Positions 5,568 to 62,220 of a DNA stretch of 64,000 bases are shown here, one piece after another; position 1 is the first letter of the stretch; each line of letters opens with the position of its first letter. Origin of the DNA: a virus; IMG/VR virus record IMGVR_UViG_3300021962_000059. One strand, given 5' to 3'. A program made the translations under genes and the position numbers. Below the pieces are notes generated by a model that saw only the letters and a program-made list of their open reading frames with translations, was not told the origin of the DNA and ran no database searches.

Positions 5568-5912
5568 TTATGGACAGTCGGTATTAATCCCCATAATCTC
5601 GCAAGCTTCAAAAAATTTATCTATTCCCCCAAATGTGTCAGGAGTAAGATTCTCGTGGGTAAATAAGCATCGAAGTTCTTCAATAATGCGATCACCCCTA
5701 AGTTTTCTTTGATAATCTTCTGGAGATGCGTATAACTCCCATTTATGCCCTTTTATTGCGCGATGGGTTTTAATATTGAACTTTTTGCCGTCAACCACTA
5801 TATATTTTTGATCAACTGATTCAATAGCTCCCCATCTACAAGTTCCATCTTCATAGGGAATCACCGCCCATACTTTAACCCCTTCTTTAATCTCGAAATC
5901 TTTCGGTAACAT
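5568..5912 (-). CDS. Hypothetical protein (114 aa)
   Basis: Intact ORF on the operon strand. No motif recognised. Confidence 0.45.
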   Translation of the reverse strand: MLPKDFEIKEGVKVWAVIPYEDGTCRWGAIESVDQKYIVVDGKKFNIKTHRAIKGHKWELYASPEDYQRKLRGDRIIEELRCLFTHENLTPDTFGGIDKFFEACEIMGINTDCP

Positions 5913-5925
5913 AAGTTTCCTTAAT

Positions 5926-6207
5926 CTAAAACCCTGATTGAATATAGGTCACGACGACATCGTGAATAAACTTAATATCTGTAGTTATACTTGTTTGATC
6001 GCCATAGTCTTTATCGTTATTCTGCAAAATGACGATAAATTTATTCAATCGACAAAGATAACGTACTCCTATCTGGGAATTTTTTATTCTTGCCCAATAT
6101 CCGTCATTATTGTCAGGAGATTGATTTTGCTCAAATTCCCAAAATTCCCAAAGATAATAGGGAATATTTTTTTTGATTGTAGATTGAAACTCTTGAAATG
6201 ATAACAT
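5926..6207 (-). CDS. Hypothetical protein (93 aa)
   Basis: Intact ORF preceded by a heptamer-repeat leader. Confidence 0.4.
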   Translation of the reverse strand: MLSFQEFQSTIKKNIPYYLWEFWEFEQNQSPDNNDGYWARIKNSQIGVRYLCRLNKFIVILQNNDKDYGDQTSITTDIKFIHDVVVTYIQSGF

Positions 6208-6254: not shown

Positions 6255-6977
6255 CTAATTGTCACAGACTACCCGGAAGCCATAGTTAAAATCTGAGACA
6301 CGGTGATGGAGACAGCCTCGGTAGCTGCAATAGCAGTTAATCACATCGTTAACCCAAGAGCCACCCCGACGCACGACAATATCTTTGTAAGATTTATTGC
6401 TAGTTTCTGTCCAAGCACTGCCATCTGTCGGCGCACCGTCATAGCTATCGTGCCAAGTATCAGCGCACCACTCCCAAACATTACCAATCATGTCATATAA
6501 TCCCCAATTGTTAGGCCGTTTTAATCCTACAGGATGAGTTCTTTCCTGAGAATTTCTGTAATACTAAGCGTAGTCTCCTAACTCATTAGCATCATTGCCA
6601 TAATAAAAGCGAGTAGTAGTCCCTGCCCGACAAGCATACTCCCATTCGGCTTCCGTCGGTAGGCGATAGGTTTTGCCGGTTATTTGACTTAATTTCTGAC
6701 AAAAAGCTTGAGCATCGTTCCAACTAACATTTTCTACCGGATTTTGAGGATTATTTGAAAAATGAGAGGGATTTATTCCCATTACTGCTTCATATTGTGC
6801 CTGAGTCACTGGATATTTTCCAATCGCAAAACTTATAAGGTAAACCTTGTTGCAAGGTTTTTCATCTTTGGGATGGTTGCAATCTAAAGACAAAGTACCC
6901 ATCAAAAAGTTTCCTGTTGGCACGATTATCATTTCTAATGCGACCTGATTAGGCAAGGTTTCAGTAAATTGGTTCAT
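6255..6977 (-). pseudogene. FGE-sulfatase (SUMF1/EgtB-like) domain gene interrupted by one in-frame TAG
   Basis: ORFs 6564..6977 and 6255..6491 share one frame. Joined, they read ...NDANELGDYA[TAG]YYRNSQERTHPVGLKRPNNWGLYDMIGNVWEWC...RGGSW...GFRVV. The TAG (6564-6566) sits where family members have Trp (AWY). Confidence 0.7.
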
Positions 6978-7007
6978 TTCTTACTCCTAAGTGTTTTGTT
7001 TTTGACG

Positions 7008-22091: not shown

Positions 22092-22164
22092 GCGGGGTGA
22101 GTGAAATGGTTTCCACATAGGCCTCATAAGCCTAAAACACTAAGTTCGACTCCTAGACCCCACA
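22092..22164 (+). tRNA. Degenerate tRNA-like gene, anticodon CAU (Met or Ile2 type)
   Basis: The cloverleaf can be drawn: acceptor GCGGGGT/ACCCCAC (C2-A71 mismatch), a D arm with GG, anticodon stem TAGGC/GCCTA with loop CTCATAA, and T arm CTAAG-TTCGACT-CCTAG (one mismatch). G replaces U at position 8, and no CCA is encoded. Confidence 0.4.
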
Positions 22165-22168
22165 CTAA

Positions 22169-33315: not shown

Positions 33316-34857
33316 TTATTTATCCTGAGTGTAATTTGTTTTTTGTTGAGATGCTCGTTCAATTTCTCTAGCTAAATAGCCGATATGAAGGGATTGAATA
33401 CTAGGGCAATCAGTAACTATTTGACGGATTAGCTTTAAAGGATTCTTGCCTTCCCATTTTCCCACAAATTCACCATTAGGGGTTAGCTGACCAACTGTGA
33501 TATTGTTCCCATCCGTTTCTACTAAAAAGTTACCAGTAGGGTCACTGTAAGATTGAATCTCTTTATTAATAATTGATTGATATTGATTATTAATTAGCTG
33601 TTCTACGTTTTCCCAACAGTCATCGTAAATATGGGCTGATTGACTAATAGTAATCAGTGGACCCATTGTTAAATCGTAGTCGGACTGACTAGCAATTCCA
33701 TCTCTGATATGATGCTGTAAAGCCCGCAATCCCATTGCGTTAGCTGGCCAAGCGGAAAACATATCATTACTCCTAAAGGTAGCTGTCAGTGACAATTCAT
33801 TATCTACTACTCTTACCCAAATATGATTAAGGCAAGGTGAACCGCCGTGATTATGGTCTGAATCACCCTTTTTTCTTTCTCCTCGCACGATTGTATTATA
33901 ATCGTTGTTACGCCAACTGTTATGTTCGGCAAGTATTTGATAGTTTCCACTTCCACTATCCCATAAAGACATAACGGCACTAGCTGAGTCAATTTCTTTG
34001 ACTAATTTATTGATAACTGCTTTAATTTGATCTTGACCAAACCAAGAACGCAATCGTTGACCATAGGTATATTTAACCCCTTCTCGATAATCAGCATCAT
34101 CAAGTATTTGTGGAATATAGTTCTTTAGATACTCTTTATCTAAAGGTAAGTAATTGGGTTCGGGAAAGTAAAAGTCTTCTGGTTCATCGGTAACTATCGC
34201 CATTAAGTCGATTAATTCTTGCCATTTACCATCATACCCAGTCGGTCTGATAGTGCCAGTGGTTTTGATTCTTTGCAGTATTTTTATCCAAGTTTCAGCA
34301 ATAGTTTTACCTTCAATCCGATGACCATAGAGCGGACCAGGTTTTACCTCTGATGTGGGTTCATTGTAGGGAAAGACCATTGGTTCTGCCCACGGTTTCA
34401 CTTTAGAGTATTGATTTAAGCTCTTTATCTCTACTATCCAATCAAGATTTGAGACTACATTAATTGAAGACCGTGATTGATTTAAAACTTCCAAAGGAAT
34501 ATCTATATCAATATACCCTTTTACCAAAGAGTCAATTATCCAGCACGGTTTCCCTACATCGTTTTTTCCTTTATAAACTCCATTTTCAAAGAAATCTTTT
34601 AGGCATTGAACACTACCAGAATTTTTGTCTTCACGGGTTGAATTTATTACAACAAGATAACGAACGTGGGGATTAGCTAACAAATTACGGACTAAAAAGT
34701 TAATTCCCCTTGATGCGCTATAAAGATTACCAATCACGGCATAATCAGAGGGATCAAGTTTTGAAGCTACCGACTTAGCGGGAGTCCATCCTGTACAGAT
34801 AGCTATATGGCCTGTTCCGATGATTAATTGATTAGGTTTGTAGATTGCGTTAAACAT
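33316..34857 (-). CDS. ThyA-superfamily dUMP C5-(hydroxy)methylase fused to an N-terminal MtrA-like (DUF4346) domain
   Basis: The C-terminal half has GGSPCLNHIWVRVVDNELSLTATFRSNDMFSAWPANAMGL. This aligns with ThyA PCH..QFYV and RS.D...G.PFN and keeps the Asn that specifies uracil. The N-terminal LYSASRGINFLVRNLLANPHVRYLVV resembles DUF4346/MtrA. Confidence 0.6.
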   Translation of the reverse strand: MFNAIYKPNQLIIGTGHIAICTGWTPAKSVASKLDPSDYAVIGNLYSASRGINFLVRNLLANPHVRYLVVINSTREDKNSGSVQCLKDFFENGVYKGKNDVGKPCWIIDSLVKGYIDIDIPLEVLNQSRSSINVVSNLDWIVEIKSLNQYSKVKPWAEPMVFPYNEPTSEVKPGPLYGHRIEGKTIAETWIKILQRIKTTGTIRPTGYDGKWQELIDLMAIVTDEPEDFYFPEPNYLPLDKEYLKNYIPQILDDADYREGVKYTYGQRLRSWFGQDQIKAVINKLVKEIDSASAVMSLWDSGSGNYQILAEHNSWRNNDYNTIVRGERKKGDSDHNHGGSPCLNHIWVRVVDNELSLTATFRSNDMFSAWPANAMGLRALQHHIRDGIASQSDYDLTMGPLITISQSAHIYDDCWENVEQLINNQYQSIINKEIQSYSDPTGNFLVETDGNNITVGQLTPNGEFVGKWEGKNPLKLIRQIVTDCPSIQSLHIGYLAREIERASQQKTNYTQDK

Positions 34858-53217: not shown

Positions 53218-53700
53218 TTAACAGGTAATCGTTTTGATGAAATTTGATATAGCCTCTACTATTTCGTCTGTTTTATCACAGATAAAATCAATCTCATTTT
53301 GTTTATCAGGGTTCTCAACGTCACTGTAAAGTGATTCATGGTAACTAAACCCTATATATTTATATATTTCTTTTATTTGCCCTGTTCTTAAGTCAAATAT
53401 TCTACTTTTCACTTTGACTGCTGGTAAATCATCAGAATCTCGGTAATGACACATGACTTTAATATGGGCTATTGTTTGCTTGTCTAAAAGAACCTTAGCA
53501 TTACCTATTAAGTGAATTTGTTCATCAAATTTTAATTGCCATTCCGACCAAAGAAGGCTTTTAAACGCCCAACTGTTCCAGTCGGAATTGTTGTTATATT
53601 CTTTGTAACAAAAAGCCGCAATCTTTTGTAGTATTCTTGCTTTTCTCGAGCGCTCCATAGCTTCTAGTTTTTTAAAAAACTCTTCTGCTGTTATTGTCAT
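53218..53700 (-). CDS. Tandem paralogue family, divergent member P2 (160 aa)
   Basis: ILQKIAAFCYKEY...WSEWQLKF...IVEAISNFIKTI. Confidence 0.5.
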   Translation of the reverse strand: MTITAEEFFKKLEAMERSRKARILQKIAAFCYKEYNNNSDWNSWAFKSLLWSEWQLKFDEQIHLIGNAKVLLDKQTIAHIKVMCHYRDSDDLPAVKVKSRIFDLRTGQIKEIYKYIGFSYHESLYSDVENPDKQNEIDFICDKTDEIVEAISNFIKTITC

Positions 53701-54074
53701 AGTGTCACCTCGGTTTGTATTTCATTTTTGATAAACTGAAAAATATCAATCATAATCTGTGTTCCTTTTTTACGCCATAGATTTAATTCTTCATGTTTAG
53801 CGGTTCCACTTTTCTTGAATGAGATTTTACTGTTTTTTCTGTCATTTATCCATACAAGAAAACTTCCTTCCCAATCTAAATTAGAAATAGTAGATCGACC
53901 TTCTATATAATTTCTAAAATCATTAGTAAACTTTATATCTATCCATATAGACTTAGGGCGATACCCGTAAATCATGTCTTGAGTTCTGCTTAAAGACGTA
54001 AATGACCACTTTAGCTCTGGGTAAGTTTTTTGGCAGAAATTGAATATTTTTGTGGTTACTTCTGTTATATTCAT
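53697..54074 (-). CDS. Tandem paralogue family, subfamily A member P3 (125 aa)
   Basis: MNITEVTTKIFNFCQKTYPELKW...DWEGSFLVWIN...IMIDIFQFIKNEIQTEVTL. ATGA overlaps on both sides. Confidence 0.65.
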   Translation of the reverse strand: MNITEVTTKIFNFCQKTYPELKWSFTSLSRTQDMIYGYRPKSIWIDIKFTNDFRNYIEGRSTISNLDWEGSFLVWINDRKNSKISFKKSGTAKHEELNLWRKKGTQIMIDIFQFIKNEIQTEVTL

Positions 54075-54451
54075 AGTGTCACCTGAGATTGTATTTCAAT
54101 TTCGATAAAGTCAAAAATGCTTGACAGTATTTCTTTGGCTTTTACAAATAAATCTGTTGACGTATCAAATTCTTTTTTTGATTTAAAAGAAAATTGAGTT
54201 CCTGTTCTGTCTAACCAAATCTTGAAAGAACCAGTCCATATTTCTGTACTAGAAATAAATGCACTTATATCTCCTAATACAACGTGACTTTCTAATCGCG
54301 TCCCGATAATCTCTATGCCTATATCAATTCCAGTTGTTTCACCCCAAATACGGGAAGTTAAATCTGTGTAATTTATCTGTTCCCAATTTATTTCTGAGTA
54401 ACGGTCTTTGCAAAAATTGAATATTTTTTGAGTTGTTTCTGTTATATTCAT
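54071..54451 (-). CDS. Tandem paralogue family, subfamily A member P4 (126 aa)
   Basis: MNITETTQKIFNFCKDRYSEINW...WTGSFKIWLD...ILSSIFDFIEIEIQSQVTL. Confidence 0.65.
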   Translation of the reverse strand: MNITETTQKIFNFCKDRYSEINWEQINYTDLTSRIWGETTGIDIGIEIIGTRLESHVVLGDISAFISSTEIWTGSFKIWLDRTGTQFSFKSKKEFDTSTDLFVKAKEILSSIFDFIEIEIQSQVTL

Positions 54452-54867
54452 AGTGTCACCTCGGATTGTATTTCATGTTCAATAAATGAAAGAATGTCAA
54501 TCATAATCTGTGTCCCTTTTTCACACCATAAGTTTAGTTCTTCATGCTGACATATTCCATCTCCTTTAAACAAAATTTCATTATTTTTTTCTTGGTTTAC
54601 CCATGCCGTAAAAACTCCTTCCCATGCTAAACGATCTATAGTGCAATAACCTTTTATTAAGCCAACTTGCAAATTACTCGGATCGTGACTAATAATGTCT
54701 ATGTATATTTTTATAGTAAGTATTCCTAGTCTAGTAAAAAAAGCTTTACATCCATAAATACACGGTTCCCCATTTCGTCCAGTCCAACTATCATCATCCC
54801 ATCTTAAATCGGGATGATTTTTCTGACAAAAATCTAATATTTTTGTGGTTACTTCTGTTATGTTCAT
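54448..54867 (-). CDS. Tandem paralogue family, subfamily A member P5 (139 aa)
   Basis: MNITEVTTKILDFCQKNHPDLRW...AWEGVFTAWVN...IMIDILSFIEHEIQSEVTL. Confidence 0.65.
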   Translation of the reverse strand: MNITEVTTKILDFCQKNHPDLRWDDDSWTGRNGEPCIYGCKAFFTRLGILTIKIYIDIISHDPSNLQVGLIKGYCTIDRLAWEGVFTAWVNQEKNNEILFKGDGICQHEELNLWCEKGTQIMIDILSFIEHEIQSEVTL

Positions 54868-55289
54868 AGTGTCACCTCGGTTTGTATTTCATTTTTGATA
54901 AACTCAAAAATATCAATCATAATCTGTGTCCCTTTTTCACACCATAGATTTAACTCTTCGTGTTTAGCGGTTCCACTTTTCTTGAATGAGATTTGACTGT
55001 TTTTTCTGTCATTTATCCATACAAGAAAACTTCCTTCCCAATCTAAATTAGAAATAGTAGATCGACCTTCTATATAATTTCTAAAATCGCTAGGTGAACC
55101 GTCACTGCTATAAGAGTTGTTACTATTGACCCTTATATCTATTTGTATTCCATTTATAGAATTAAGAATAGGGCGATACCCGTAAATCATGTCTTGAGTT
55201 CTGTCTAAAGACGTAAATGACCACTTTAGCTCTGGGTAAGTTTTTTGGCAGAAACCTAATATTTTTTGGGCTGTTTCTTGTTTGTTCAT
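54864..55289 (-). CDS. Tandem paralogue family, subfamily A member P6 (141 aa from MNKQETAQ; the track start at 55310 is an alternative)
   Basis: The C-terminal ~60 aa are nearly identical to P3. The central segment is replaced by ILNSINGIQIDIRVNSNNSYSSDGSPSD. Confidence 0.6.
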   Translation of the reverse strand: MNKQETAQKILGFCQKTYPELKWSFTSLDRTQDMIYGYRPILNSINGIQIDIRVNSNNSYSSDGSPSDFRNYIEGRSTISNLDWEGSFLVWINDRKNSQISFKKSGTAKHEELNLWCEKGTQIMIDIFEFIKNEIQTEVTL

Positions 55290-55293
55290 AATT

Positions 55294-55773
55294 TTAACTT
55301 TTAACCTCAACTATTTTGCAAAACCTTAAAATAGTCTCCATTATCTTTATTGCCTCTGGAACCAAAATATTGAACTCTTCTTTGTTTCCGCTTGGATAAA
55401 GATTATATCTTGAGTTGCAGTCTGGTGTTTCGTTATAACCGTATATCCAACTTAAGGCAACCAAAGACCCGCCTAACGTACCTTCTATTGTGATTTTTTC
55501 AAGGCATTTGTCTACTAATTGATATTCAGTCGAAATTTCTCGACATTCAATCAAAACTTCATACTTTTTACATTTTATTAACTTACCATAAGTTTTGTAA
55601 AGATAATCCTCTTTAATTATCAAAGTTCCTATTAAACGAATACATTTATCGTCTGCAACTGTATCCCATTCTGAGATGTCCACTGTATCGTATTCGGAGA
55701 TGGTCATCTGCTCAAAAGTTTTTTTAAAGAAATCTCTGATTTCTTTAAGTGACTTTTCTTTTAATACTTCCAT
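55294..55773 (-). CDS. Tandem paralogue family, divergent member P7 (159 aa)
   Basis: LKEIRDFFKKTFEQ...VPEAIKIMETILRFCKIVEV. Confidence 0.5.
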   Translation of the reverse strand: MEVLKEKSLKEIRDFFKKTFEQMTISEYDTVDISEWDTVADDKCIRLIGTLIIKEDYLYKTYGKLIKCKKYEVLIECREISTEYQLVDKCLEKITIEGTLGGSLVALSWIYGYNETPDCNSRYNLYPSGNKEEFNILVPEAIKIMETILRFCKIVEVKS

Positions 55774-55783
55774 TGTTTTTACC

Positions 55784-56116
55784 TCAAATACAAATAACTA
55801 GATCACCGACACAAACATTGATAAATTTCTCACAATCGTATCGAGAATTATTACAAGCTTGAATAATAGAAGTATTTTCCTCAATAGAAATAACCATCCC
55901 TGATCCCTTATAAAGGATACGATGACCAATAAAGTCTCTAGTTATTGGGTCGTATATTGGGTTGTTTGTAATTGAATAAACCAGATGAGAGTCATTTATT
56001 CTCATACGATTTAATTCGCCACGGTTTATTACTACTTTAAAATCATCGATAACTTCAATTACCTTAGCTGGATACGTTCCTTTAGTCGGAAGTCCTAGCT
56101 CCTCGTCTGTTGTCAT
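55784..56116 (-). CDS. Unrelated 110 aa beta-rich protein embedded in the array
   Basis: Intact ORF. Its ATG lies 4 nt after the stop of the truncated paralogue. Confidence 0.45.
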   Translation of the reverse strand: MTTDEELGLPTKGTYPAKVIEVIDDFKVVINRGELNRMRINDSHLVYSITNNPIYDPITRDFIGHRILYKGSGMVISIEENTSIIQACNNSRYDCEKFINVCVGDLVICI

Positions 56117-56120
56117 TGTT

Positions 56121-56243
56121 TTAAGTGCCTGTAGCCTCAGTTGTTTTAATAAAGCCTAAAATAGTCTCCATTATCTTTGTCGCTTCTGGAATTAAGATAT
56201 TTAAGATTTCGTTGTCCCCCTCACTTTTTGGCTCTTTTTTAAT
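56121..56243 (-). pseudogene. Truncated paralogue (only the C-terminal helix of a P7-like gene)
   Basis: 56154-56228 aligns at roughly 75 percent by eye with the 3' end of P7. It reads (ATT)KKEPKSEGDNEILNILIPEATKIMETILGFIKTTEATGT* immediately after an AGGAG SD. Confidence 0.6.
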
Positions 56244-56267
56244 CTGTTACTCCTATTGGGTGAAATT

Positions 56268-56290
56268 ACTAGACAGATATTTTGTCTAGT
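56268..56290 (-). promoter_or_regulatory. Inter-gene hairpin ACTAGACA-N7-TGTCTAGT preceding the leader AATTTCACCCAATAGGAG
   Basis: 8 bp stem. A paralogous hairpin and leader occur at 57554-57576. Confidence 0.5.
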
Positions 56291-56297
56291 AGTGTTT

Positions 56298-56660
56298 TCA
56301 TTCTTGAATCTCATCAAGAATGAAAGTGAAGATGTCTAGCATTACTTTTCGGGTTTCTCTGTATTTGTTGTCAAAATAATCGCATTTTGACTTTCTAATA
56401 TAATCAAAGAATATTTTATTTTCATAAGAACGGTTATTGTCTCTATCGTCAGGGTTTATCCATAATTCAAATGTGCCTACATAATACGCTTCACATAAAA
56501 CACGCTTAAGCAAGCCATCCAGAAAAACCTCTATTATTAATTCATCAGGAAAAAGTGGACACTGAATTATATTATTTTCAGGGTCAAGATTCCATCTTAA
56601 ATTTGGATAACTTCTGTGACAGAATTCCAATATTTTCTCTGTTATTTGTTTTATGTCCAT
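56298..56660 (-). CDS. Tandem paralogue family, subfamily B member P8 (120 aa)
   Basis: MDIKQITEKILEFCHRSYPNLRW...GTFELWINP...VMLDIFTFILDEIQE. Confidence 0.65.
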   Translation of the reverse strand: MDIKQITEKILEFCHRSYPNLRWNLDPENNIIQCPLFPDELIIEVFLDGLLKRVLCEAYYVGTFELWINPDDRDNNRSYENKIFFDYIRKSKCDYFDNKYRETRKVMLDIFTFILDEIQE

Positions 56661-56675
56661 TGGTGTTGCTCCTAT

Positions 56676-57086
56676 TTATTCTTGAATTTCGTTAGCAATA
56701 AAATTGAAAATACCTAGCATCACTTCTCGATATTTTTTGTACAAGTCCCAGTCTTTTTTATCCCACTCTTTTGTTATTGGGAGACTACGAAAATCTATTT
56801 TTTTGTCACAATTTAGATGAATACCAAACATCCCCAACCAACCTACATTAACTAGGTCAAAGTGTCCGATTATATAATCATCGGTAGTTTCTTCTTTATA
56901 AGAAGAAACATCATTTCTTTTGTCTGAGCAAATTTTTAGAGTTACTTTAAACAGAGAATCTACTCCACAAATTACAGTTTTATTTGTACATTCACTATTT
57001 AATTTATCTACATTCCACTCTAAATCTGGGTATTGATTTAAGCAATAACCTGATATTTTGTAAGCTATTAGTTGTATCTCCATCAC
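56676..57086 (-). CDS. Tandem paralogue family, subfamily B member P9 (136 aa)
   Basis: ...IAYKISGYCLNQYPDLEW...GWLGMFGIHLN...VMLGIFNFIANEIQE. Confidence 0.65.
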   Translation of the reverse strand: MMEIQLIAYKISGYCLNQYPDLEWNVDKLNSECTNKTVICGVDSLFKVTLKICSDKRNDVSSYKEETTDDYIIGHFDLVNVGWLGMFGIHLNCDKKIDFRSLPITKEWDKKDWDLYKKYREVMLGIFNFIANEIQE

Positions 57087-57098
57087 TGTTACTCCTGT

Positions 57099-57527
57099 CT
57101 ATTCTTGAATTTCATCTTCAATAAAATTAAAGATTTCTCTCACCATTTTTCTGGCTTTTTTTACTAAAAGCCAGCTATCATCATTCCAATCGTCATGAGT
57201 AGCAAGCATAAGCTCTAATTCGCTGTCTTTGTTATGGTTTAACTTAACCTCAAAACTACCCGACCAGAAAAGTAGAGATTTTTCTTCTGATTGAGGTATT
57301 AGAAGCGACCCCAATATATAATCGTAAGTAGCTTCTTTTTCGTAAAACTCTTGTTTTTCATCTGAGCAAATTTCTAGCTCTAATTTAAATAAAGAGCAAG
57401 AGCCAAGAATAAGTGCGACAACGTTATAGTTATTTTTATGGCTGTCAAAATAGTTACAGTTCCAGCCTAAATCTGAATAACTTTGGCAGAAATTAAATAA
57501 TTTTTCTGTCACTTGTTTTGTATCCAT
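57099..57527 (-). CDS. Tandem paralogue family, subfamily B member P10 (142 aa)
   Basis: MDTKQVTEKLFNFCQSYSDLGW...WSGSFEVKLN...MVREIFNFIEDEIQE. Confidence 0.65.
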   Translation of the reverse strand: MDTKQVTEKLFNFCQSYSDLGWNCNYFDSHKNNYNVVALILGSCSLFKLELEICSDEKQEFYEKEATYDYILGSLLIPQSEEKSLLFWSGSFEVKLNHNKDSELELMLATHDDWNDDSWLLVKKARKMVREIFNFIEDEIQE

Positions 57528-57553
57528 TGATTTTACTCCTATTAGGTGAACTT

Positions 57554-57576
57554 ACTAGACAGATATTCTGTCTAGT
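57554..57576 (-). promoter_or_regulatory. Inter-gene hairpin ACTAGACAGA-TAT-TCTGTCTAGT preceding the leader AAGTTCACCTAATAGGAG
   Basis: 10 bp stem between P11 and P10. Confidence 0.5.
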
Positions 57577-57583
57577 ATTGTTT

Positions 57584-57982
57584 TTACTCTTGAATCTCAT
57601 TAAGGATGAAATTGAAAATGTCTAGCATTACTTTTCGGCATTGACTAGCTAATTTCCAATGTTCTGCACTCCATAGTTCATGTTTATAATAGGCAAGATT
57701 CTCAAAAACTATATAGTCTTCATACCGATAGCTCATGTCTTCGATGGGAGGATTTATCCAAATTTTAAACTTTCCTATTTGGTTATCTTGCCACTCAACA
57801 CACTTGAGTTGTCCGTCTAATCCCGACCAAATACCGTATTTAATCTTTATGCTGTCATCAGAAAAAGTTAAGCATTGAATGATTTTATAGTCATTATCTG
57901 TAAAATCAAAATTCCAGTCTAAATCTGGGTATTTTTCTTCACAGAAATTTAGTATCTTTTCTGCTATTTGTTGTGTGTCCAT
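57584..57982 (-). CDS. Tandem paralogue family, subfamily B member P11 (132 aa)
   Basis: MDTQQIAEKILNFCEEKYPDLDW...IGKFKIWINP...VMLDIFNFILNEIQE. Confidence 0.65.
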   Translation of the reverse strand: MDTQQIAEKILNFCEEKYPDLDWNFDFTDNDYKIIQCLTFSDDSIKIKYGIWSGLDGQLKCVEWQDNQIGKFKIWINPPIEDMSYRYEDYIVFENLAYYKHELWSAEHWKLASQCRKVMLDIFNFILNEIQE

Positions 57983-58007
57983 TCGTTAGTCCTGTTGGGT
58001 GAAATTA

Positions 58008-58160
58008 CTAGGAAATACCTACTGTTTCTTCTACTACGATACTGTGATGACCGTTGCGACTTAGAGCTTCTAAATAAGAAGCTAATCGACTCGCGTGCAT
58101 AGATGTTTTAATCTTGCAAGGCTTGTTTTTTCCATCTATTGTTCTAATTGTGTATCGCAT
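58008..58160 (-). CDS. Small protein (50 aa, below cutoff)
   Basis: MRYTIRTIDGKNKPCKIKTSMHASRLASYLEALSRNGHHSIVVEETVGIS. A 3 nt gap separates it from the upstream ORF. Confidence 0.35.
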   Translation of the reverse strand: MRYTIRTIDGKNKPCKIKTSMHASRLASYLEALSRNGHHSIVVEETVGIS

Positions 58161-58163
58161 CTG

Positions 58164-58322
58164 CTATCTCCAATTTTTTGAATTTTGCCTGCAATAATCT
58201 AAATGCGCCTTAAGTCTTTTGGCAGACTTTTGTTCATCTGTTCCTCTAATAAGTCCTTTGTTCTTATCAATGTCATCCTGACTTGATAATTTAGCCCATG
58301 CTTTCTTTTTTTCTTCTGTCAT
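58164..58322 (-). CDS. Small basic protein (52 aa, below cutoff)
   Basis: MTEEKKKAWAKLSSQDDIDKNKGLIRGTDEQKSAKRLKAHLDYCRQNSKNWR. Tightly packed between its neighbours. Confidence 0.35.
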   Translation of the reverse strand: MTEEKKKAWAKLSSQDDIDKNKGLIRGTDEQKSAKRLKAHLDYCRQNSKNWR

Positions 58323-58324
58323 AA

Positions 58325-58513
58325 TTACACCTTTACTGTTTCAAGTCCACGCTGTTCTAAGATTTTATTATACTCTTTGATTTTCGAGTATAAAACCTCT
58401 CGTTTTTGTTGTGCGGTTTCCCCAGATTCTTGCTTAGAACTTCGATATTGTCCCGCGTAAAAATTAGCGTAATAACTAATTTTAGCAGTGTCTATATTTG
58501 CAACAAGCTTCAT
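58325..58513 (-). CDS. Hypothetical protein (62 aa)
   Basis: Intact ORF with a heptamer-type leader and a TAAGGAG SD. Confidence 0.45.
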   Translation of the reverse strand: MKLVANIDTAKISYYANFYAGQYRSSKQESGETAQQKREVLYSKIKEYNKILEQRGLETVKV

Positions 58514-58542
58514 AATTTTCTCCTTAATTCATTGTTGTTTTT

Positions 58543-58562
58543 AACTAATAACTGATAACTAA
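58543..58562 (-). repeat. Heptamer repeat leader
   Basis: Minus strand reads TAGTTAT CAGTTAT TAGTTAA AAACAAC AATGAAT TAAGGAG. Confidence 0.75.
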
Positions 58563-58593
58563 ATCCAATTAATTTTTCCACCTTGCCCGAACA

Positions 58594-58836
58594 TCATATG
58601 TATAAAGCATACATATAAATTGGGTCAGGATTATCTGGTGGTTCATACATTTGATCGTAGGCAGCCTCAATGTCAGAATCTTCAATGTCACCATTAATTA
58701 AATGGTCAATCAAAATAGCAGCCATGTTTTCAGCTTCTTCTTTGGTTAATTGAAGGCCTAAGTCACTCCAATGATCAGTTGCATACTCAAGAATGTATTT
58801 AACTAATTCATCGACTTTATCTTGCAATTTACTCAC
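58594..58836 (-). CDS. Acidic hypothetical protein (80 aa, GTG start)
   Basis: An AGGAGG SD lies 5 nt before GTG 58836. It is downstream of a consensus promoter. Confidence 0.5.
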   Translation of the reverse strand: MSKLQDKVDELVKYILEYATDHWSDLGLQLTKEEAENMAAILIDHLINGDIEDSDIEAAYDQMYEPPDNPDPIYMYALYI

Positions 58837-58862
58837 GATTTCCTCCTTGATTCATTACTTAA

Positions 58863-58891
58863 ATCTTACATTATTCTACTAGAATTGTCAA
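58863..58891 (-). promoter_or_regulatory. Consensus promoter cTTGACAATTC-N-TAAGAT
   Basis: -35 TTGACA (58891-58886), 17 bp spacer, -10 TAAGAT (58868-58863). Confidence 0.6.
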
Positions 58892-59091
58892 GAAATTTCT
58901 TGAAAATCTTCTTTTCTAAAACAGTAAAATTGTTCTCCTTTTGTGAGGTGATCGATTGATTCAAAATGGTAGTAGATTCCTATGGCAGTCTTAATAATTC
59001 CCAGTGGTTTGCACTGAGGAAAAATACGACCATAGGAATTGACACGATAAACTTTTTCAGGGTATCGAGAGGGAATATATTGTCCAATCAT
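58888..59091 (-). CDS. Hypothetical protein (67 aa from MIGQYIPS...)
   Basis: Start moved to ATG 59091. The first 10 codons of the track ORF are the translated T-arm of the tRNA-like element. Confidence 0.45.
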   Translation of the reverse strand: MIGQYIPSRYPEKVYRVNSYGRIFPQCKPLGIIKTAIGIYYHFESIDHLTKGEQFYCFRKEDFQEIS

Positions 59092-59092
59092 A

Positions 59093-59294
59093 GGTACTAG
59101 AGACGGGAATTGAACCCGCAAAACTTAATTAAATCTACTCCTGACGAAACGCCCTTCCCTTACTCAATCTTTGCCAAGTTCGGTGGATTCGCAAATTTCA
59201 GTTTTGAAACAAAAAATAAAGGTATTTTTTGTATTAAGTCCCTTTTCGGTTGAAGGCTCCGTTTCACAGCCTTTAGCTACCAAGCTACTCTAGC
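59093..59294 (-). ncRNA. tRNA-like RNA with a ~130 nt internal insert
   Basis: 5' GCTAGAG-TA-(AGCT-TGGT-AGCT). 3' GCGGG-TTCAATT-CCCGT followed by CTCTAGT-A-CC. The 7 bp acceptor pairing begins with G1.U72, and U8 and A9 are present. The predicted TSS of the upstream promoter falls on the first acceptor base. Confidence 0.5.
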
Positions 59295-59300
59295 ACTTCA

Positions 59301-59329
59301 ATCCTATCAGAGGCTTCTGAAATTGTCAA
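59301..59329 (-). promoter_or_regulatory. Promoter TTGACA-N17-TAGGAT driving the tRNA-like RNA
   Basis: -35 at 59329-59324, 17 bp spacer, -10 at 59306-59301. Predicted +1 is about 59294. The -35 begins 6 nt after the primase stop. Confidence 0.6.
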
Positions 59330-59334
59330 TCCTA

Positions 59335-62220
59335 TCAGGTACTTATATCCTGTAGATAACAGTTAGAAAATGGAATTGTAAAAGCGATCACAGACCCATT
59401 TAAGATAGTTTCTACCCTCAAAAGCCATTGATTGTCAAAAGTCACTTCGATAACTTTTCCGACTGCTCTTGGTGGGATAGTTCGCTCTCCTATCTCTATA
59501 GATGCACCCGTTCGCACTAATACCCTTTCTTTTTCAAGATCAGGAAGACTATCAATGTGTACACCATCAGCCGAGAACTCATCGACTGGCTCCGATTCAA
59601 CTTCTACTATCTCAGGGTTAGAGATCGGTTCATTTTTTGGAGTAGGAGTGGGAATCTGGACAATTTCCTCTTTTATTTCTGATTGATATTCCAGAGATTC
59701 GGGTTCTTCTATCTCAAAAGCTTCTAATTCTTTTGGCTCTTGATAGCGCAGTATCATGCCCCTTGATTTGACCTCTAATCGTCCATAGCCAGCTTGTTCT
59801 AACTGAGTAAGTAGGGTGCGGGCAATAGAGGTGTTTACTTTTTCCCCGTTAATTTTACGCCCGCCGAATTTTTGGGCAACTTCCCGGGGTTTAATCTGTC
59901 CTGCGCTTTTGACAATCTCCCATATCTCGGATAAGATTCCCTGTACCGGATTCTCATCCTGAGAAGTAACCCCTTGAATTGTCAAGAATTGACTGATATA
60001 GAAGTCAGTCATCTTAGCAGCTTTTTTAGCTGTTTGTACTGGTATTTTATAGAGGTCGGTATTATCTGGATCAAATATCCAGTTCAATAGATGGATTGCC
60101 AGAGTAAGCCTTAAGAAAGTCTTCATCTGTTTCCCTATATAAGAAGCAAATGATGGATTAATCGCCCGATACTTTTTGATAAGCATCTCGTAATGATACT
60201 TAATACCGAAGGCATAATCCTCTCCAGTTTCGGTAAACCAACAATTATAAGGATCGACGATTCCATCTTCATCAGCTTCTAGATTAATCCCGCTGATTTG
60301 ATTGATAATATTTTGGATGCACTCTTGAATCGAGTTAGGGTCTTCTGGCGGTCTCCCACGTTGAGGATCGAGGGGTTCATGCAATAGGAAAAGAAACCGA
60401 GAAACCAATCCATCTACATCATTAGATAGGTCTAAGTATTTTTGTACTTTCTGTATCTGTATCCCACCTAATATATTGATAGTTTGCCCATTCAGGAAAT
60501 AGCGATTTTCCTCTTTTACCCTATCAAAAGTATTTTGTACTGGATCATTCCAAGATGATAATAATCGTTGCCGGTCATTACCTTTACCGCCCGACCGGTA
60601 TTGATTTAAGCCTTCAAATAATCCCGTTAACTCATCCGCTACCCACACCCCACCTTGCCAACGAGGTTGAGTGGACATCGTTTTCAGGACACCATCGAAA
60701 GTTCCTTCGTCATAAAACCAGCGACGGGATTGACAGTTTTCTTTTTCGTAAAGACTAGGATTTACTTCAGCGTTTTCTTTGTGTATGCTACGCTCTTCGC
60801 GGGTCATTTCTGCCCATTCTGCTTTTAATTCTTTTAGCCTAGCTTGCTTTTTAGAGAGCCTTTCTAACTCATCTAAGTCCTTTCTTTTTAATACCTTGTA
60901 AATTTCTTTTTGAGTAGTAGTTTTCCCACTACTTACACCACCAGCATCAGCACAATAAAAAATCGGGTATTCTTTCCAGCACTCCCTTTCCCTTGCAGTA
61001 GTTCGGAGGTTAACTGCAAATCGACTACCTAAGATAGCCCCTAATATTGGCCATAGGGAGTGTAGCAATCGGATTGGGGGCTGGTTAAGTGTTCTGGCGC
61101 GGGATATGATTGCCTCAGCTAAAGGTTGGGGTAATATTTGAAAAAGATCAATCTCTTTTTTCTGATAATGCTTACCCCTTAAAAAACCCTCTAATCCTGT
61201 TTTAATAGCGTCCCCTTCCGCTATTTCTGTTTTACGAATTTCGATTAAATGCCGTATTTCTGTTGGCTTTTTACCAGTGGCTTTTGCCCATAAATCGACT
61301 TTTTCTTGCCATTGGGTTCTAGTGATTTCCTCTTGTCCAATACAGCCGTCAATGGCTGTTATTAAGTCTTGGAAAGTCATAGTTTCTGTTACTGTGACTT
61401 CCTTCTCTTTTTTCTCCTTTACTTCTTTTGGTTTGTCAACTATCGAGGCTAATAGTTCTTTAAGATCAATTTTCTTTTCCTCAATCCAGTTGATGATATC
61501 TACCCCCTGAGAATCTGGCAAGTGATTCCATATAAGAGAGTCTGGATAGGCATAAAGCCATTTTGCTTCTGGGAAATCTTGATAAATTTTCTGGCAGTGA
61601 GCTACTCCCCCTTTGTCACGGTCCGGGCATAAAACTAATTTTGCTCCCTTTAAAGCTTCTGTGTGAGACGGTTGCCATTTCTTTGATCCGCCTATATTGC
61701 AAGTGGCAACTAATCCAAAAGATTCAAGCTTTTCTACTTTAGTCTCACCCTCGACTATATAAATCGGAGTTCCTTCCTTGATAGCCTTTTCTAGGCGATC
61801 TGCGTGGTAAAGAGGTATATTTTTGTACTCAATATCACCTATGCCCCACTTCCAGTTTTTACCATTATCTGTAGAGTGCTGTTGTTTTATATCCTTTTTC
61901 CAAATACCATCTTCTTTGTAATCCTTCCGGTACACACGGACTCTCACCCCATTGGCAAGAGGGGGATAAAGGAAGTATTGGGTTTTTTCTTCTTTATAGG
62001 CAGAAAATTTGACTTCTTTTTTAAGATAGTAGAGCGGTGTACCCTCACTATCTACTTTGCTCGATTTTTCCCATCCTGGTGCGGGGTCATAGTTTCGTTT
62101 GCAGACTGAGATGGTATTGCCGTCATCGGCTACATACATATAGCACCAATCGGGCTTGCCACAGTGGGGGCAAGGATTGTTTTTGTCGATCTTGACACGG
62201 TTAGAGTTTTGTGTTACCAT
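59335..62220 (-). CDS. Primase-helicase (zinc finger, TOPRIM, DUF3987-like P-loop domain)
   Basis: CPHCGKPDWC, TOPRIM motifs IVEGETKVEKL and CPDRDKGG, and the P-loop DAGGVSSGKTT. 961 aa. Confidence 0.8.
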   Translation of the reverse strand: MVTQNSNRVKIDKNNPCPHCGKPDWCYMYVADDGNTISVCKRNYDPAPGWEKSSKVDSEGTPLYYLKKEVKFSAYKEEKTQYFLYPPLANGVRVRVYRKDYKEDGIWKKDIKQQHSTDNGKNWKWGIGDIEYKNIPLYHADRLEKAIKEGTPIYIVEGETKVEKLESFGLVATCNIGGSKKWQPSHTEALKGAKLVLCPDRDKGGVAHCQKIYQDFPEAKWLYAYPDSLIWNHLPDSQGVDIINWIEEKKIDLKELLASIVDKPKEVKEKKEKEVTVTETMTFQDLITAIDGCIGQEEITRTQWQEKVDLWAKATGKKPTEIRHLIEIRKTEIAEGDAIKTGLEGFLRGKHYQKKEIDLFQILPQPLAEAIISRARTLNQPPIRLLHSLWPILGAILGSRFAVNLRTTARERECWKEYPIFYCADAGGVSSGKTTTQKEIYKVLKRKDLDELERLSKKQARLKELKAEWAEMTREERSIHKENAEVNPSLYEKENCQSRRWFYDEGTFDGVLKTMSTQPRWQGGVWVADELTGLFEGLNQYRSGGKGNDRQRLLSSWNDPVQNTFDRVKEENRYFLNGQTINILGGIQIQKVQKYLDLSNDVDGLVSRFLFLLHEPLDPQRGRPPEDPNSIQECIQNIINQISGINLEADEDGIVDPYNCWFTETGEDYAFGIKYHYEMLIKKYRAINPSFASYIGKQMKTFLRLTLAIHLLNWIFDPDNTDLYKIPVQTAKKAAKMTDFYISQFLTIQGVTSQDENPVQGILSEIWEIVKSAGQIKPREVAQKFGGRKINGEKVNTSIARTLLTQLEQAGYGRLEVKSRGMILRYQEPKELEAFEIEEPESLEYQSEIKEEIVQIPTPTPKNEPISNPEIVEVESEPVDEFSADGVHIDSLPDLEKERVLVRTGASIEIGERTIPPRAVGKVIEVTFDNQWLLRVETILNGSVIAFTIPFSNCYLQDIST
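62192..62220 (+). promoter_or_regulatory. Possible plus-strand promoter TTGACA-N17-TACCAT inside the primase 5' end
   Basis: -35 at 62192-62197. The -10 at 62215-62220 is the complement of the primase start codon region. Confidence 0.35.

Follow-up and report, generated by a model that had tools for sequence, protein, structure and literature searches.

Location and parts of the RNA gene

We analysed a stretch of 64,000 nucleotides (nt) of viral DNA (IMG/VR record IMGVR_UViG_3300021962_000059; hereafter the window) and describe an element on its minus strand in which a sigma-70-type promoter, located directly after a primase-helicase gene, precedes a predicted RNA of about 200 nt that resembles a transfer RNA (tRNA) at its ends and holds a large insert in between. 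A preliminary description, made from the letters of the window, had read the element as a self-contained, promoter-driven tRNA-like RNA with a structured insert of about 130 nt, and the comparative data presented below support this core reading. Because the element is conserved and varies among relatives in ways that preserve base pairs, we judge it to be a real gene and more than a product of chance.

The promoter, TTGACA-N17-TAGGAT, was found where it had been described, right after the stop codon of the primase gene. It matches 10 of 12 consensus positions and has, in addition, TG ahead of the -10 element. The predicted transcriptional start is G1 of GCTAGAG, 7 nt past the -10 element, as had been proposed; position +1 is a purine (G or A) in all variants, facing U72. 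In the following, nt 1 of the RNA is window position 59294 and nt n is position 59295-n, on the minus strand. Up to the discriminator A (59095) the RNA measures 200 nt; then come two non-conserved bases (CC, CU, UU or UC among relatives) and a U. The variability of these bases indicates that the CCA end is not encoded, as is usual for cyanobacterial tRNA genes. The parts of the locus are listed below by window position, with RNA positions in brackets.

59092-59329, minus strand: whole element, promoter included
59335-62220, minus strand: primase-helicase open reading frame (ORF), DUF3987; stop codon TGA at 59337-59335, directly ahead of the promoter
59301-59329, minus strand: sigma-70-type promoter; -35 element TTGACA at 59329-59324, 17-nt spacer, extended -10 element TGaTAGGAT at 59309-59301
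59092-59294, minus strand: RNA gene, based on the span 59093-59294 called by ARAGORN in intron mode, on 59 full-length copies and on a covariance model
59288-59294 (nt 1-7), minus strand: 5' strand of the acceptor stem, GCUAGAG; pairs with nt 193-199 and opens with G1.U72
59275-59286 (nt 9-20), minus strand: after U8-A9, D-like arm AGCU-UGGU-AGCU; nt 9-12 pair with nt 17-20, and GG lies inside the 4-nt loop
59253-59273 (nt 22-42), minus strand: anticodon-arm-like hairpin AAGGCU-GUGAAACGG-AGCCUU; 6-bp stem, nt 22-27 with nt 37-42
59240-59252 (nt 43-55), minus strand: linker CAACCGAAAAGGG between the anticodon-like arm and the long arm
59123-59239 (nt 56-172), minus strand: long arm at the variable-arm position; closing helix ACUUAAU/AUUAAGU, 59239-59233 with 59129-59123 (nt 56-62 with nt 166-172)
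59209-59232 (nt 63-86), minus strand: 10-bp A/U hairpin with a 4-nt loop
nt 97-104 with nt 157-164, minus strand: helix within the long arm
59160-59192 (nt 103-135), minus strand: mini-frame GCG AAU CCA CCG AAC UUG GCA AAG AUU GAG UAA
59143-59153 (nt 142-152), minus strand: small hairpin GGCG-UUU-CGUC
59103-59119 (nt 176-192), minus strand: T arm GCGGG-UUCAAUU-CCCGU
59102-59096 (nt 193-199), minus strand: 3' strand of the acceptor stem, CUCUAGU, followed by the discriminator A at 59095 (nt 200), CC at 59094-59093 (nt 201-202) and U (nt 203)
58888-59091, minus strand: downstream gene of 67 amino acids (aa), its AUG directly after nt 203

The long arm is 117 nt long; with the 13-nt linker included, 133 nt separate the anticodon-like stem from the T stem. 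The single-sequence minimum-energy fold reproduced all helices of the list, and its energy alone was unremarkable (z = -1.73). The features named in the preliminary description, namely the 7-bp acceptor with its G1.U72 wobble, U8-A9, the D-like arm with GG, the textbook T arm, the A-CC end and the three elements of the insert (6-bp hairpin, 10-bp A/U hairpin and closing helix ACTTAAT/ATTAAGT), were all confirmed at their places.

Occurrence of the promoter-RNA unit in Microcystis phages

By megablast, we compared 3 kb around the element (window 58000-61000) with about 50,000 phage genomes. Only the 310 bp at 59037-59346, comprising the promoter, the RNA and 55 nt beyond, matched Ma-LMM01-type phages, at 92% identity: Microcystis phage Ma-LMM01 and all eight of its MaMV relatives, that is, 9 of the 9 sequenced Ma-LMM01/MaMV phages. 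The rest of the 3 kb gave no DNA match in these genomes, nor did a separate 24-kb stretch of the window (30000-54000) in the phage collection. The window therefore belongs to an uncultured phage that is unrelated to Ma-LMM01 at the DNA level. Proteins common to the window and Ma-LMM01 are limited to nrdA, nrdB, nblA, an endolysin, an FGE-sulfatase-like protein and a ProQ-C-like protein, with no SmpB, synthetase or RNA ligase among them. In Ma-LMM01, the homologous RNA (NC_008562, 144879-145077, plus strand) and its promoter lie between gp162 and tRNA-Tyr, in a gap without annotation, and run antisense to all the genes around them; the RNA shows no sequence similarity to this tRNA-Tyr.

Employing pattern scans (four of IMG/VR, one of JGI metagenomes and one of representative genomes, with one genome per species), we found the unit, from the promoter to ...CUCUAGUACC, in about 60 phage or metagenome contigs. 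The true loci were distributed as follows.

IMG/VR: about 45
JGI metagenomes: 12
Representative genomes: 3 contigs of metagenome-assembled genomes, mis-binned, none labelled Microcystis

Since the scan of representative genomes found the RNA in no record labelled Microcystis, it is not a copy of a host tRNA or attachment site. The alignment set consisted of the 59 full-length copies, which represent 32 distinct sequences; all copies are at least about 95% identical, and the mean column identity of the distinct sequences is 97%. A covariance model of the family found exactly one copy per genome and no paralog. The pattern scans of the three collections detected no distant homologues, and phages with a primase 55% or 32% identical to that of the window do not carry the RNA beside the primase gene. 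With relatives existing only at 95% identity or above, a deep covariation analysis is impossible. We found no description of the RNA in the literature.

The unit is present in at least three flanking contexts, and the conserved block starts at the promoter. In one recurrent context (contigs L004, L005, L008, L016, L020, L021, L025, L029 and L033), homology ends right after ...CUCUAGUACCU (ACCU), the tRNA-like 3' end. The mean pairwise identity is 96.6% within the RNA, 87.8% in the 45 nt upstream and 86.6% in the 63 nt downstream. In the promoters of relatives, TTGACA and T1, A2 and T6 of the -10 element are kept, and the spacer varies at many positions. These comparisons establish the promoter and the RNA as a conserved unit that is shared horizontally.

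Some contigs show rearrangements at the locus. In L034, L037, L039 and L047, a truncated duplicate of the RNA gene is found 1251 bp upstream of the intact gene (L034, 4802-4840). It comprises a mutated -35 element and the initial ~37 nt, after which comes a terminator-like hairpin, ACAGAGGG-ACAA-CCCTCTGTTTTTT; the interval between duplicate and intact gene contains four small genes in the opposite orientation. The metagenome contig Ga0208053_1011350 (L074) has an upstream flank of the primase type and a downstream flank like that of Ma-LMM01, and represents either natural recombination, with the crossover within the RNA gene, or a chimeric assembly joined at the shared 200 bp. Recombination seems to take place at the RNA gene. 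In L085 and L086, whose primase is 56% identical, a DNA methylase gene directly follows the primase at the position that the RNA gene takes in the window, and a helicase with intein-type Hom_end and LAGLIDADG domains is encoded farther downstream.

Base-pair-preserving variation in the RNA

The consensus fold of the 32 variants contains the same helices as the single-sequence fold. In the acceptor stem, pair 1-199 is G.U or A-U, pair 5-195 is G-C or G.U, and pair 6-194 is A-U, G.U or G-C in different relatives, a full compensatory series with a double change. In the A/U hairpin, pair 71-78 is U-A, U.G or C-G (double change in L020), pairs 63-86 and 68-81 are A-U or G.U, the Ma-LMM01 type has a paired deletion of one base from each arm, and all four positions of the loop vary freely. 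The D-like arm is invariant save for C11U, which keeps a U.G pair; A23G in the anticodon-like stem keeps a G.U pair; in the small hairpin, U151C yields G-C and C149U yields G.U, pairing being kept both times. The loop of the T arm varies only at purine 57 (A or G); in its stem, C190U keeps a G.U pair and the singleton G178A breaks a pair. Changes in helix 97-104/157-164 are one-sided and keep a standard pair. The linker is mostly invariant, and a 2-bp mini hairpin that RNAalifold placed there is without covariation. A long-range pairing of GAAACG in the anticodon-like loop (nt 30-35) with CGUUUC (nt 144-149) did not exceed chance expectation (P = 0.16); L065 has one double change there.

Taken together, 14 of the 17 distinct stem substitutions keep the pair and 3 break it (p = 0.006; about half would be expected to break under random transitions), and two double changes, at 6-194 in the acceptor stem and at 71-78, are compensatory. 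The preliminary description had named compensatory changes in relatives as a check of the fold, and missing covariation in the acceptor and T arm as grounds for giving it up; the series at 6-194 speaks for the acceptor. The kept G.U pairs would be A.C mismatches on the other strand, which points to selection on the transcript of this strand rather than on duplex DNA. Insertions and deletions of 1-2 nt inside the RNA rule out protein coding on either strand. On this evidence, the predicted tRNA-like cloverleaf with its large arm has evolved in a strand-specific, pair-preserving manner.

Response of RNA detection programs

The check with ARAGORN and Rfam that had been suggested for the locus gave a divided result. 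Default ARAGORN and Rfam at gathering thresholds, applied to the whole window, were silent at the locus and found only a tRNA-Met elsewhere; ARAGORN in its transfer-messenger RNA (tmRNA) and mitochondrial modes also called nothing there. In intron mode, however, ARAGORN called exactly 59093-59294, and this was its sole extra call across the 64-kb window. Applied to the complete 162-kb genome of Ma-LMM01, the same mode made one extra call, at the homologous site. Without any other spurious call in 226 kb, a tRNA-like frame is not readily produced by chance in that mode.

When E values up to 10 were admitted in Rfam over 58900-59500, there was still no match to a tmRNA, intron, Y RNA or 6S family. 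A partial match to tRNA (RF00005) reached 15.8 bits, as compared to the gathering score of 29, and covered the T arm and the 3' acceptor strand only; the other match, a small RNA on the opposite strand, is due to chance. Like a tRNA, the RNA has a 7-bp acceptor stacked on a 5-bp T stem and a UUCRAnn T loop; in a tRNA, however, a variable region of ~4-24 nt would be expected where 133 nt are present here.

The anticodon-like loop and the mini-frame

In most variants, the loop of the anticodon-arm-like hairpin is GAAACGN and has 7 nt; it has 8 nt in one variant and 9 nt in the window (GUGAAACGG) and in L024. The 9-nt loop reported earlier is thus present in the window but peculiar to it and L024, and with the 7-nt loop of most relatives the cloverleaf is more tRNA-like than the window alone shows. 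The first and last positions of the loop vary and AAACG is invariant, with A instead of U at position 33 and G at position 32. A decoding tRNA was rejected in view of A33, the loop length of 7, 8 or 9 nt and the variable flanking positions of the loop.

The mini-frame (ANPPNLAKIE*) is present as GCG..UAA/UGA in all variants. Its variable sites are GCG>GCU, CCG>CCA, UUG>UUA and UAA<>UGA, all four being synonymous or stop-preserving (p = 0.012; four events only), and extra contigs from Logan, ENA and NCBI, collected via primase homologues, provided no further variable sites in the frame. Just upstream of GCG, the variable in-frame sites C89U and U95C are both non-synonymous. Within the mini-frame, G120A also turns a G.U pair of a predicted helix into A-U; the consensus fold leaves the remaining three sites unpaired. 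A translated tag beginning at GCG would be expected to vary in this way, and RNA pairing explains part of the synonymous variation.

The gene downstream of the RNA

The AUG of the 67-aa ORF lies 4 nt past the discriminator base, and the ORF has neither a Shine-Dalgarno sequence nor a promoter of its own. Its frame is intact in 40 loci, with 18, 5 and 38 variable sites at the first, second and third codon positions; the intact frame and the codon-position bias indicate that it is a real coding gene. The protein has no Pfam match. In the Ma-LMM01 and MaMV isolates the ORF is truncated to 18 codons, and it is absent in at least 9 contigs of another context.

In the lineage of the window, the RNA is by its position the predicted 5' leader of the 67-aa gene, and the idea of a processed tRNA-like leader, raised in the preliminary description, fits this lineage, where the ORF is a real gene without a Shine-Dalgarno sequence. 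If the transcript were cut at the tRNA-like 3' end, the messenger RNA (mRNA) of the 67-aa gene would retain almost no leader. In a sublineage of at least 6 contigs, including L036 (7562-7762), L043 (6926-7126) and L070, the 3' acceptor strand CUCUAGUACC is replaced by CUGGGGAC, which creates a Shine-Dalgarno-like GGGGA 3-4 nt ahead of the AUG of the 67-aa gene; it looks as though a conventional ribosome-binding site takes over from processing in this acceptor-less sublineage.

Over the last codons of the 67-aa ORF, there is a second near-consensus promoter-like site, TTGACA-N17-TAAGAT (window 58863-58891, minus strand), immediately ahead of the following small gene (58594-58836). Some 900 bp downstream from the ORF, about ten paralogous genes, each encoding 120-160 aa, form a tandem array over 53697-57982 on the minus strand. 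The encoded proteins start with M(N/D)I(T/K)(E/Q)..KI(F/L)(N/D)FC and end with ..F(I/L)..EIQ(S/T)EVTL or EIQE; the one member tested (57584-57982) has no Pfam match.

Interpretation of the RNA

We favour, with about an even chance of its being correct, the explanation that the element is a stand-alone phage gene for a tRNA-mimicking non-coding RNA of ~200 nt, with the conserved insert as its payload. As the promoter predicts, host RNA polymerase would start at base 1 of the acceptor, so that no RNase P step would be needed. The transcript would then fold into a cloverleaf (acceptor, reduced D arm, anticodon-like arm and T arm) with the 117-nt arm and the 13-nt linker at the class II variable-arm site, as suggested by the fold and the pair-preserving variation. 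The tRNA 3'-end machinery (RNase Z-type) may cut after the discriminator A and CCA may be added, yielding a stable tRNA-shaped RNA. In the lineage of the window, this cleavage would also release the mRNA of the 67-aa gene with hardly any leader, in keeping with the adjacency of the two and the absent Shine-Dalgarno sequence. Rather than decoding codons, the RNA would act through its insert, and the tRNA shape would give it stability and access to tRNA-binding host factors. Its role might be that of a decoy or modulator of translation-linked or tRNA-directed functions in a defence-rich host; this is a guess, and the least supported step.

Several observations weigh against this explanation. A shuffle control of the whole structure was weak, 41-61 of 500 shuffles reaching the observed values, and the family is very shallow (97% identity). 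The closing helix, predicted in both the single-sequence and the consensus fold, and most of the insert are invariant and without covariation. The swap to CUGGGGAC abolishes the acceptor stem, hence tRNA-like closure is dispensable at least in that sublineage. The cloverleaf spliced in silico (see below) falls short of the default threshold of ARAGORN, and the published transcriptome paper on Ma-LMM01 does not mention a tRNA or non-coding RNA. For the guessed role as decoy or modulator, no partner protein is found among the proteins common to the window and Ma-LMM01.

Alternatively, the RNA might act purely in cis, as a tRNA-like 5' leader ('t-element') of the 67-aa gene that is cut by tRNA-processing enzymes to a near-leaderless mRNA. 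The AUG 4 nt after the discriminator, the missing Shine-Dalgarno sequence and separate promoter, the evidence for a real 67-aa gene and the GGGGA gained with CUGGGGAC in the acceptor-less sublineage, as if substituting for processing, all agree with such a role, for which plant mitochondrial t-elements are a precedent (PMC1920247). However, the RNA and its promoter are kept at more than 95% identity where the ORF has only 18 codons or is absent, so that leader function cannot be the sole role; moreover, a mere signal for processing would not call for 130 nt of insert that are conserved from end to end. We consider a leader with no further role unlikely. Less probable still is an element acting at the DNA level (replication origin, recombination hotspot or attachment site) that resembles a tRNA gene, or a gene for a 24-aa micropeptide starting at an AUG at nt 61-63. 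The unit is located in a replication module in both lineages (after the primase-helicase in the window, among helicases in Ma-LMM01), and its flanks are mosaic, with the truncated 5' duplicate in four contigs and the flanks of two lineages joined in L074; yet the pair-preserving G.U changes are strand-specific, which points to RNA, and there is no integrase nearby. As to the micropeptide, G63 in 26 of the 32 variants creates an in-frame AUG preceded by AAGGG and thereby a 24-codon ORF. We rejected the view that this ORF is what selection maintains: six variants, the window among them, have no such AUG; in every cultured isolate the frame is interrupted by the paired indel; the fifth codon is hypervariable, encoding P, K, T or S; and both the AUG and AAGGG are buried in helices.

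Two further explanations take the tRNA-like ends to be functional in translation. Removal of an intervening sequence after transcription could turn the RNA into a working tRNA: when nt 44-172 were deleted in silico, a 72-nt cloverleaf resulted that ARAGORN scored as tRNA-Val(AAC) at 90% of its threshold, and the T loop and acceptor stem are textbook. This is hardly credible, considering the loop with A33, G32, lengths of 7, 8 or 9 nt and variable flanking positions, a spliced product below the default threshold of ARAGORN, and an insert that is as conserved as the tRNA-like part. A group I intron was rejected, as the preliminary description had concluded from the length of the insert: ~130 nt compare with at least about 200 nt, the insert lies in the variable region and not in the anticodon loop, and neither Intron_gpI nor any other Rfam intron family matches. 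No bacterial intron class is known to occur at the variable region of a tRNA, which likewise counts against an interrupted tRNA. The other explanation develops the preliminary proposal of a reduced tmRNA-like function: the ends would be aminoacylated, the RNA would enter stalled ribosomes, and translation would resume on GCG AAU...UAA, adding (X)ANPPNLAKIE. The topology fits, with the ends forming an acceptor and T arm and the frame lying in an arm at the class II variable-arm position, from which helix 2 of tmRNA reportedly projects in published structures of the tRNA-like domain with SmpB. The mini-frame, without a start codon of its own, opens with Ala-Asn, as do many tmRNA tags, and has an A at -4 from GCG; its four variable sites are all silent or stop-to-stop, and the sites just upstream, C89U and U95C, are not. 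On the other side, the G3.U70 pair, the universal alanine identity pair of tmRNA, is absent, as had been stated; 30 of the 32 variants have U-A as pair 3-70, and the other two, L036 and L043, in which the acceptor is disrupted, have U.G. The 4-bp D stem and the 6-bp anticodon-like hairpin are conserved and fill the space taken by SmpB in tmRNA, no pseudoknot was found, with only the simple A/U hairpin lying upstream of GCG, and the tag has no hydrophobic ..AA end, again in agreement with the preliminary description, and no obvious degradation signal. The tmRNA mode of ARAGORN and all Rfam models of tmRNA are silent, even at E values up to 10, and no SmpB-like or synthetase-like gene is common to both phage lineages. 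G120A is equally well explained by helix pairing, and the argument from synonymy rests on four events. The mini-frame itself is retained in all variants. A tmRNA by definition was rejected for want of G3.U70, a supported pseudoknot and a detector match and because of the D stem and anticodon-like arm, and a non-canonical rescue RNA of reduced type appears doubtful to us. We are similarly sceptical of its boldest form, a novel trans-translation RNA with a complete tRNA shape and a ten-codon tag frame in its variable arm, lacking the alanine identity pair, exchanged among Microcystis phages and rescuing or re-tagging stalled ribosomes.

Clustered regularly interspaced short palindromic repeats (CRISPR) were considered because of a 13-nt direct repeat, CTGATAGGATTGA, in the promoter and GAAAC in the anticodon-like loop. 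The two promoter copies (within window 59298-59337, minus strand), of which the first is not kept in every relative, lie over the -35 and over the -10 element, 30-31 nt apart. Local alignments to seven Microcystis repeat types (taken from PMC4428289), in both orientations, gave p >= 0.13 relative to shuffles, and a CRISPR-repeat mimic or RNA anti-CRISPR was rejected. Likewise, the similarity of CTGATAGGATTGA to the 3' half of the Microcystis I-D CRISPR repeat was not significant.

Other genes of the two phage lineages

A tRNA-Met(CAU) gene occurs in both lineages (window 22092-22165, plus strand; Ma-LMM01, 34160-34232). Ma-LMM01 has, in addition, the tRNA-Tyr adjoining the RNA gene, an RNA ligase (gp003) and a 266-aa protein, gp131, that is annotated as 'histidyl tRNA synthetase' and has no Pfam match. 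The ProQ-C-like protein of the window (5571-5948, minus strand; 126 aa; Phage_ProQ_C_like domain, PF24203, E = 1.9e-8) is 65% identical to gp129 of Ma-LMM01 and is a possible RNA-binding partner. At 6258-6980 on the minus strand, two adjacent ORFs (138 and 102 aa) correspond to two halves of one FGE-sulfatase-type domain, are 79% identical to gp037 of Ma-LMM01 (annotated as 'kinase') and look like a split or frameshifted gene.

Significance

Ma-LMM01 serves as the model phage for Microcystis aeruginosa, a toxic bloom-former, and its annotation (NC_008562.1) leaves the locus as an empty gap. A near-consensus promoter of the host type, a 200-nt RNA far better conserved than its flanks and sharing by unrelated phages of the same host are, in combination, the signature of a host-interaction or counter-defence factor. 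No RNA family described so far combines a full cloverleaf with a large, conserved arm in place of the variable arm. If ribosomes do not read the internal frame, the RNA would still be a new natural tRNA scaffold carrying a functional RNA payload; if they do, it would be a second, independent solution to trans-translation. A trans-translation RNA of this kind would show tRNA and mRNA joined in one molecule outside the SsrA lineage and could resemble an ancestral tmRNA. Phage and host can be cultured as a pair, so these questions are directly testable.

Comparison with known tRNA-like RNAs

Non-coding RNAs with tRNA-like parts are already known, namely tmRNA, YrlA, the species 1 and 2 RNAs of phage T4 and t-elements. 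New in the present RNA, which has no Rfam family and no description in the literature, is the combination of a complete cloverleaf, a predicted start at +1 and a conserved arm of 130 nt at the variable-arm position. With class II tRNAs (Leu, Ser and bacterial Tyr), it shares the full cloverleaf, an extra arm between the anticodon and T arms, A73 and a CCA end that is not encoded. In class II tRNAs, however, this arm has 10-20 nt, whereas arm and linker here amount to about 130 nt; the D loop here is as short as 4 nt, the anticodon loop departs from the canonical form and differs in length among variants, and the match to the Rfam tRNA model is only partial (15.8 bits relative to a gathering score of 29).

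With tmRNA (SsrA, including phage-encoded forms), the RNA shares an acceptor stacked on a T arm and formed from the 5' and 3' ends, a reduced D region that keeps GG, a discriminator A and a short internal frame running from Ala-Asn to a stop codon within an arm that takes the place of the variable arm. The RNA has a length of about 200 nt, as compared to about 350 nt for tmRNA. In t-elements of plant mitochondria and RNAs of the MALAT1 mascRNA type, a tRNA-like fold lies beside an mRNA and tRNA enzymes define the transcript ends, which is only predicted here. Those elements are short and without a conserved payload, whereas the RNA described here keeps its 130-nt insert and persists without the downstream gene.

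The ends of YrlA, a Y-RNA-like RNA, form a Ro-binding stem and its tRNA-like part is internal, whereas the ends of the present RNA form the acceptor stem. Both the YrlA RNAs of bacteria and phages (PMC4201824) and the present RNA are non-coding and have a tRNA-mimicking module with a T arm and a D-like GG. No Y RNA family of Rfam matches the RNA described here. The stable RNAs species 1 and 2 of phage T4 (rnaC and rnaD) have 120-140 nt and tRNA-like termini and depend on tRNA-processing enzymes; they are encoded inside a tRNA gene cluster and are cut from a polycistronic precursor by RNase P. The RNA of the Microcystis phages has no sequence relationship to them and, in contrast, has its own promoter, from which it is predicted to start at +1.

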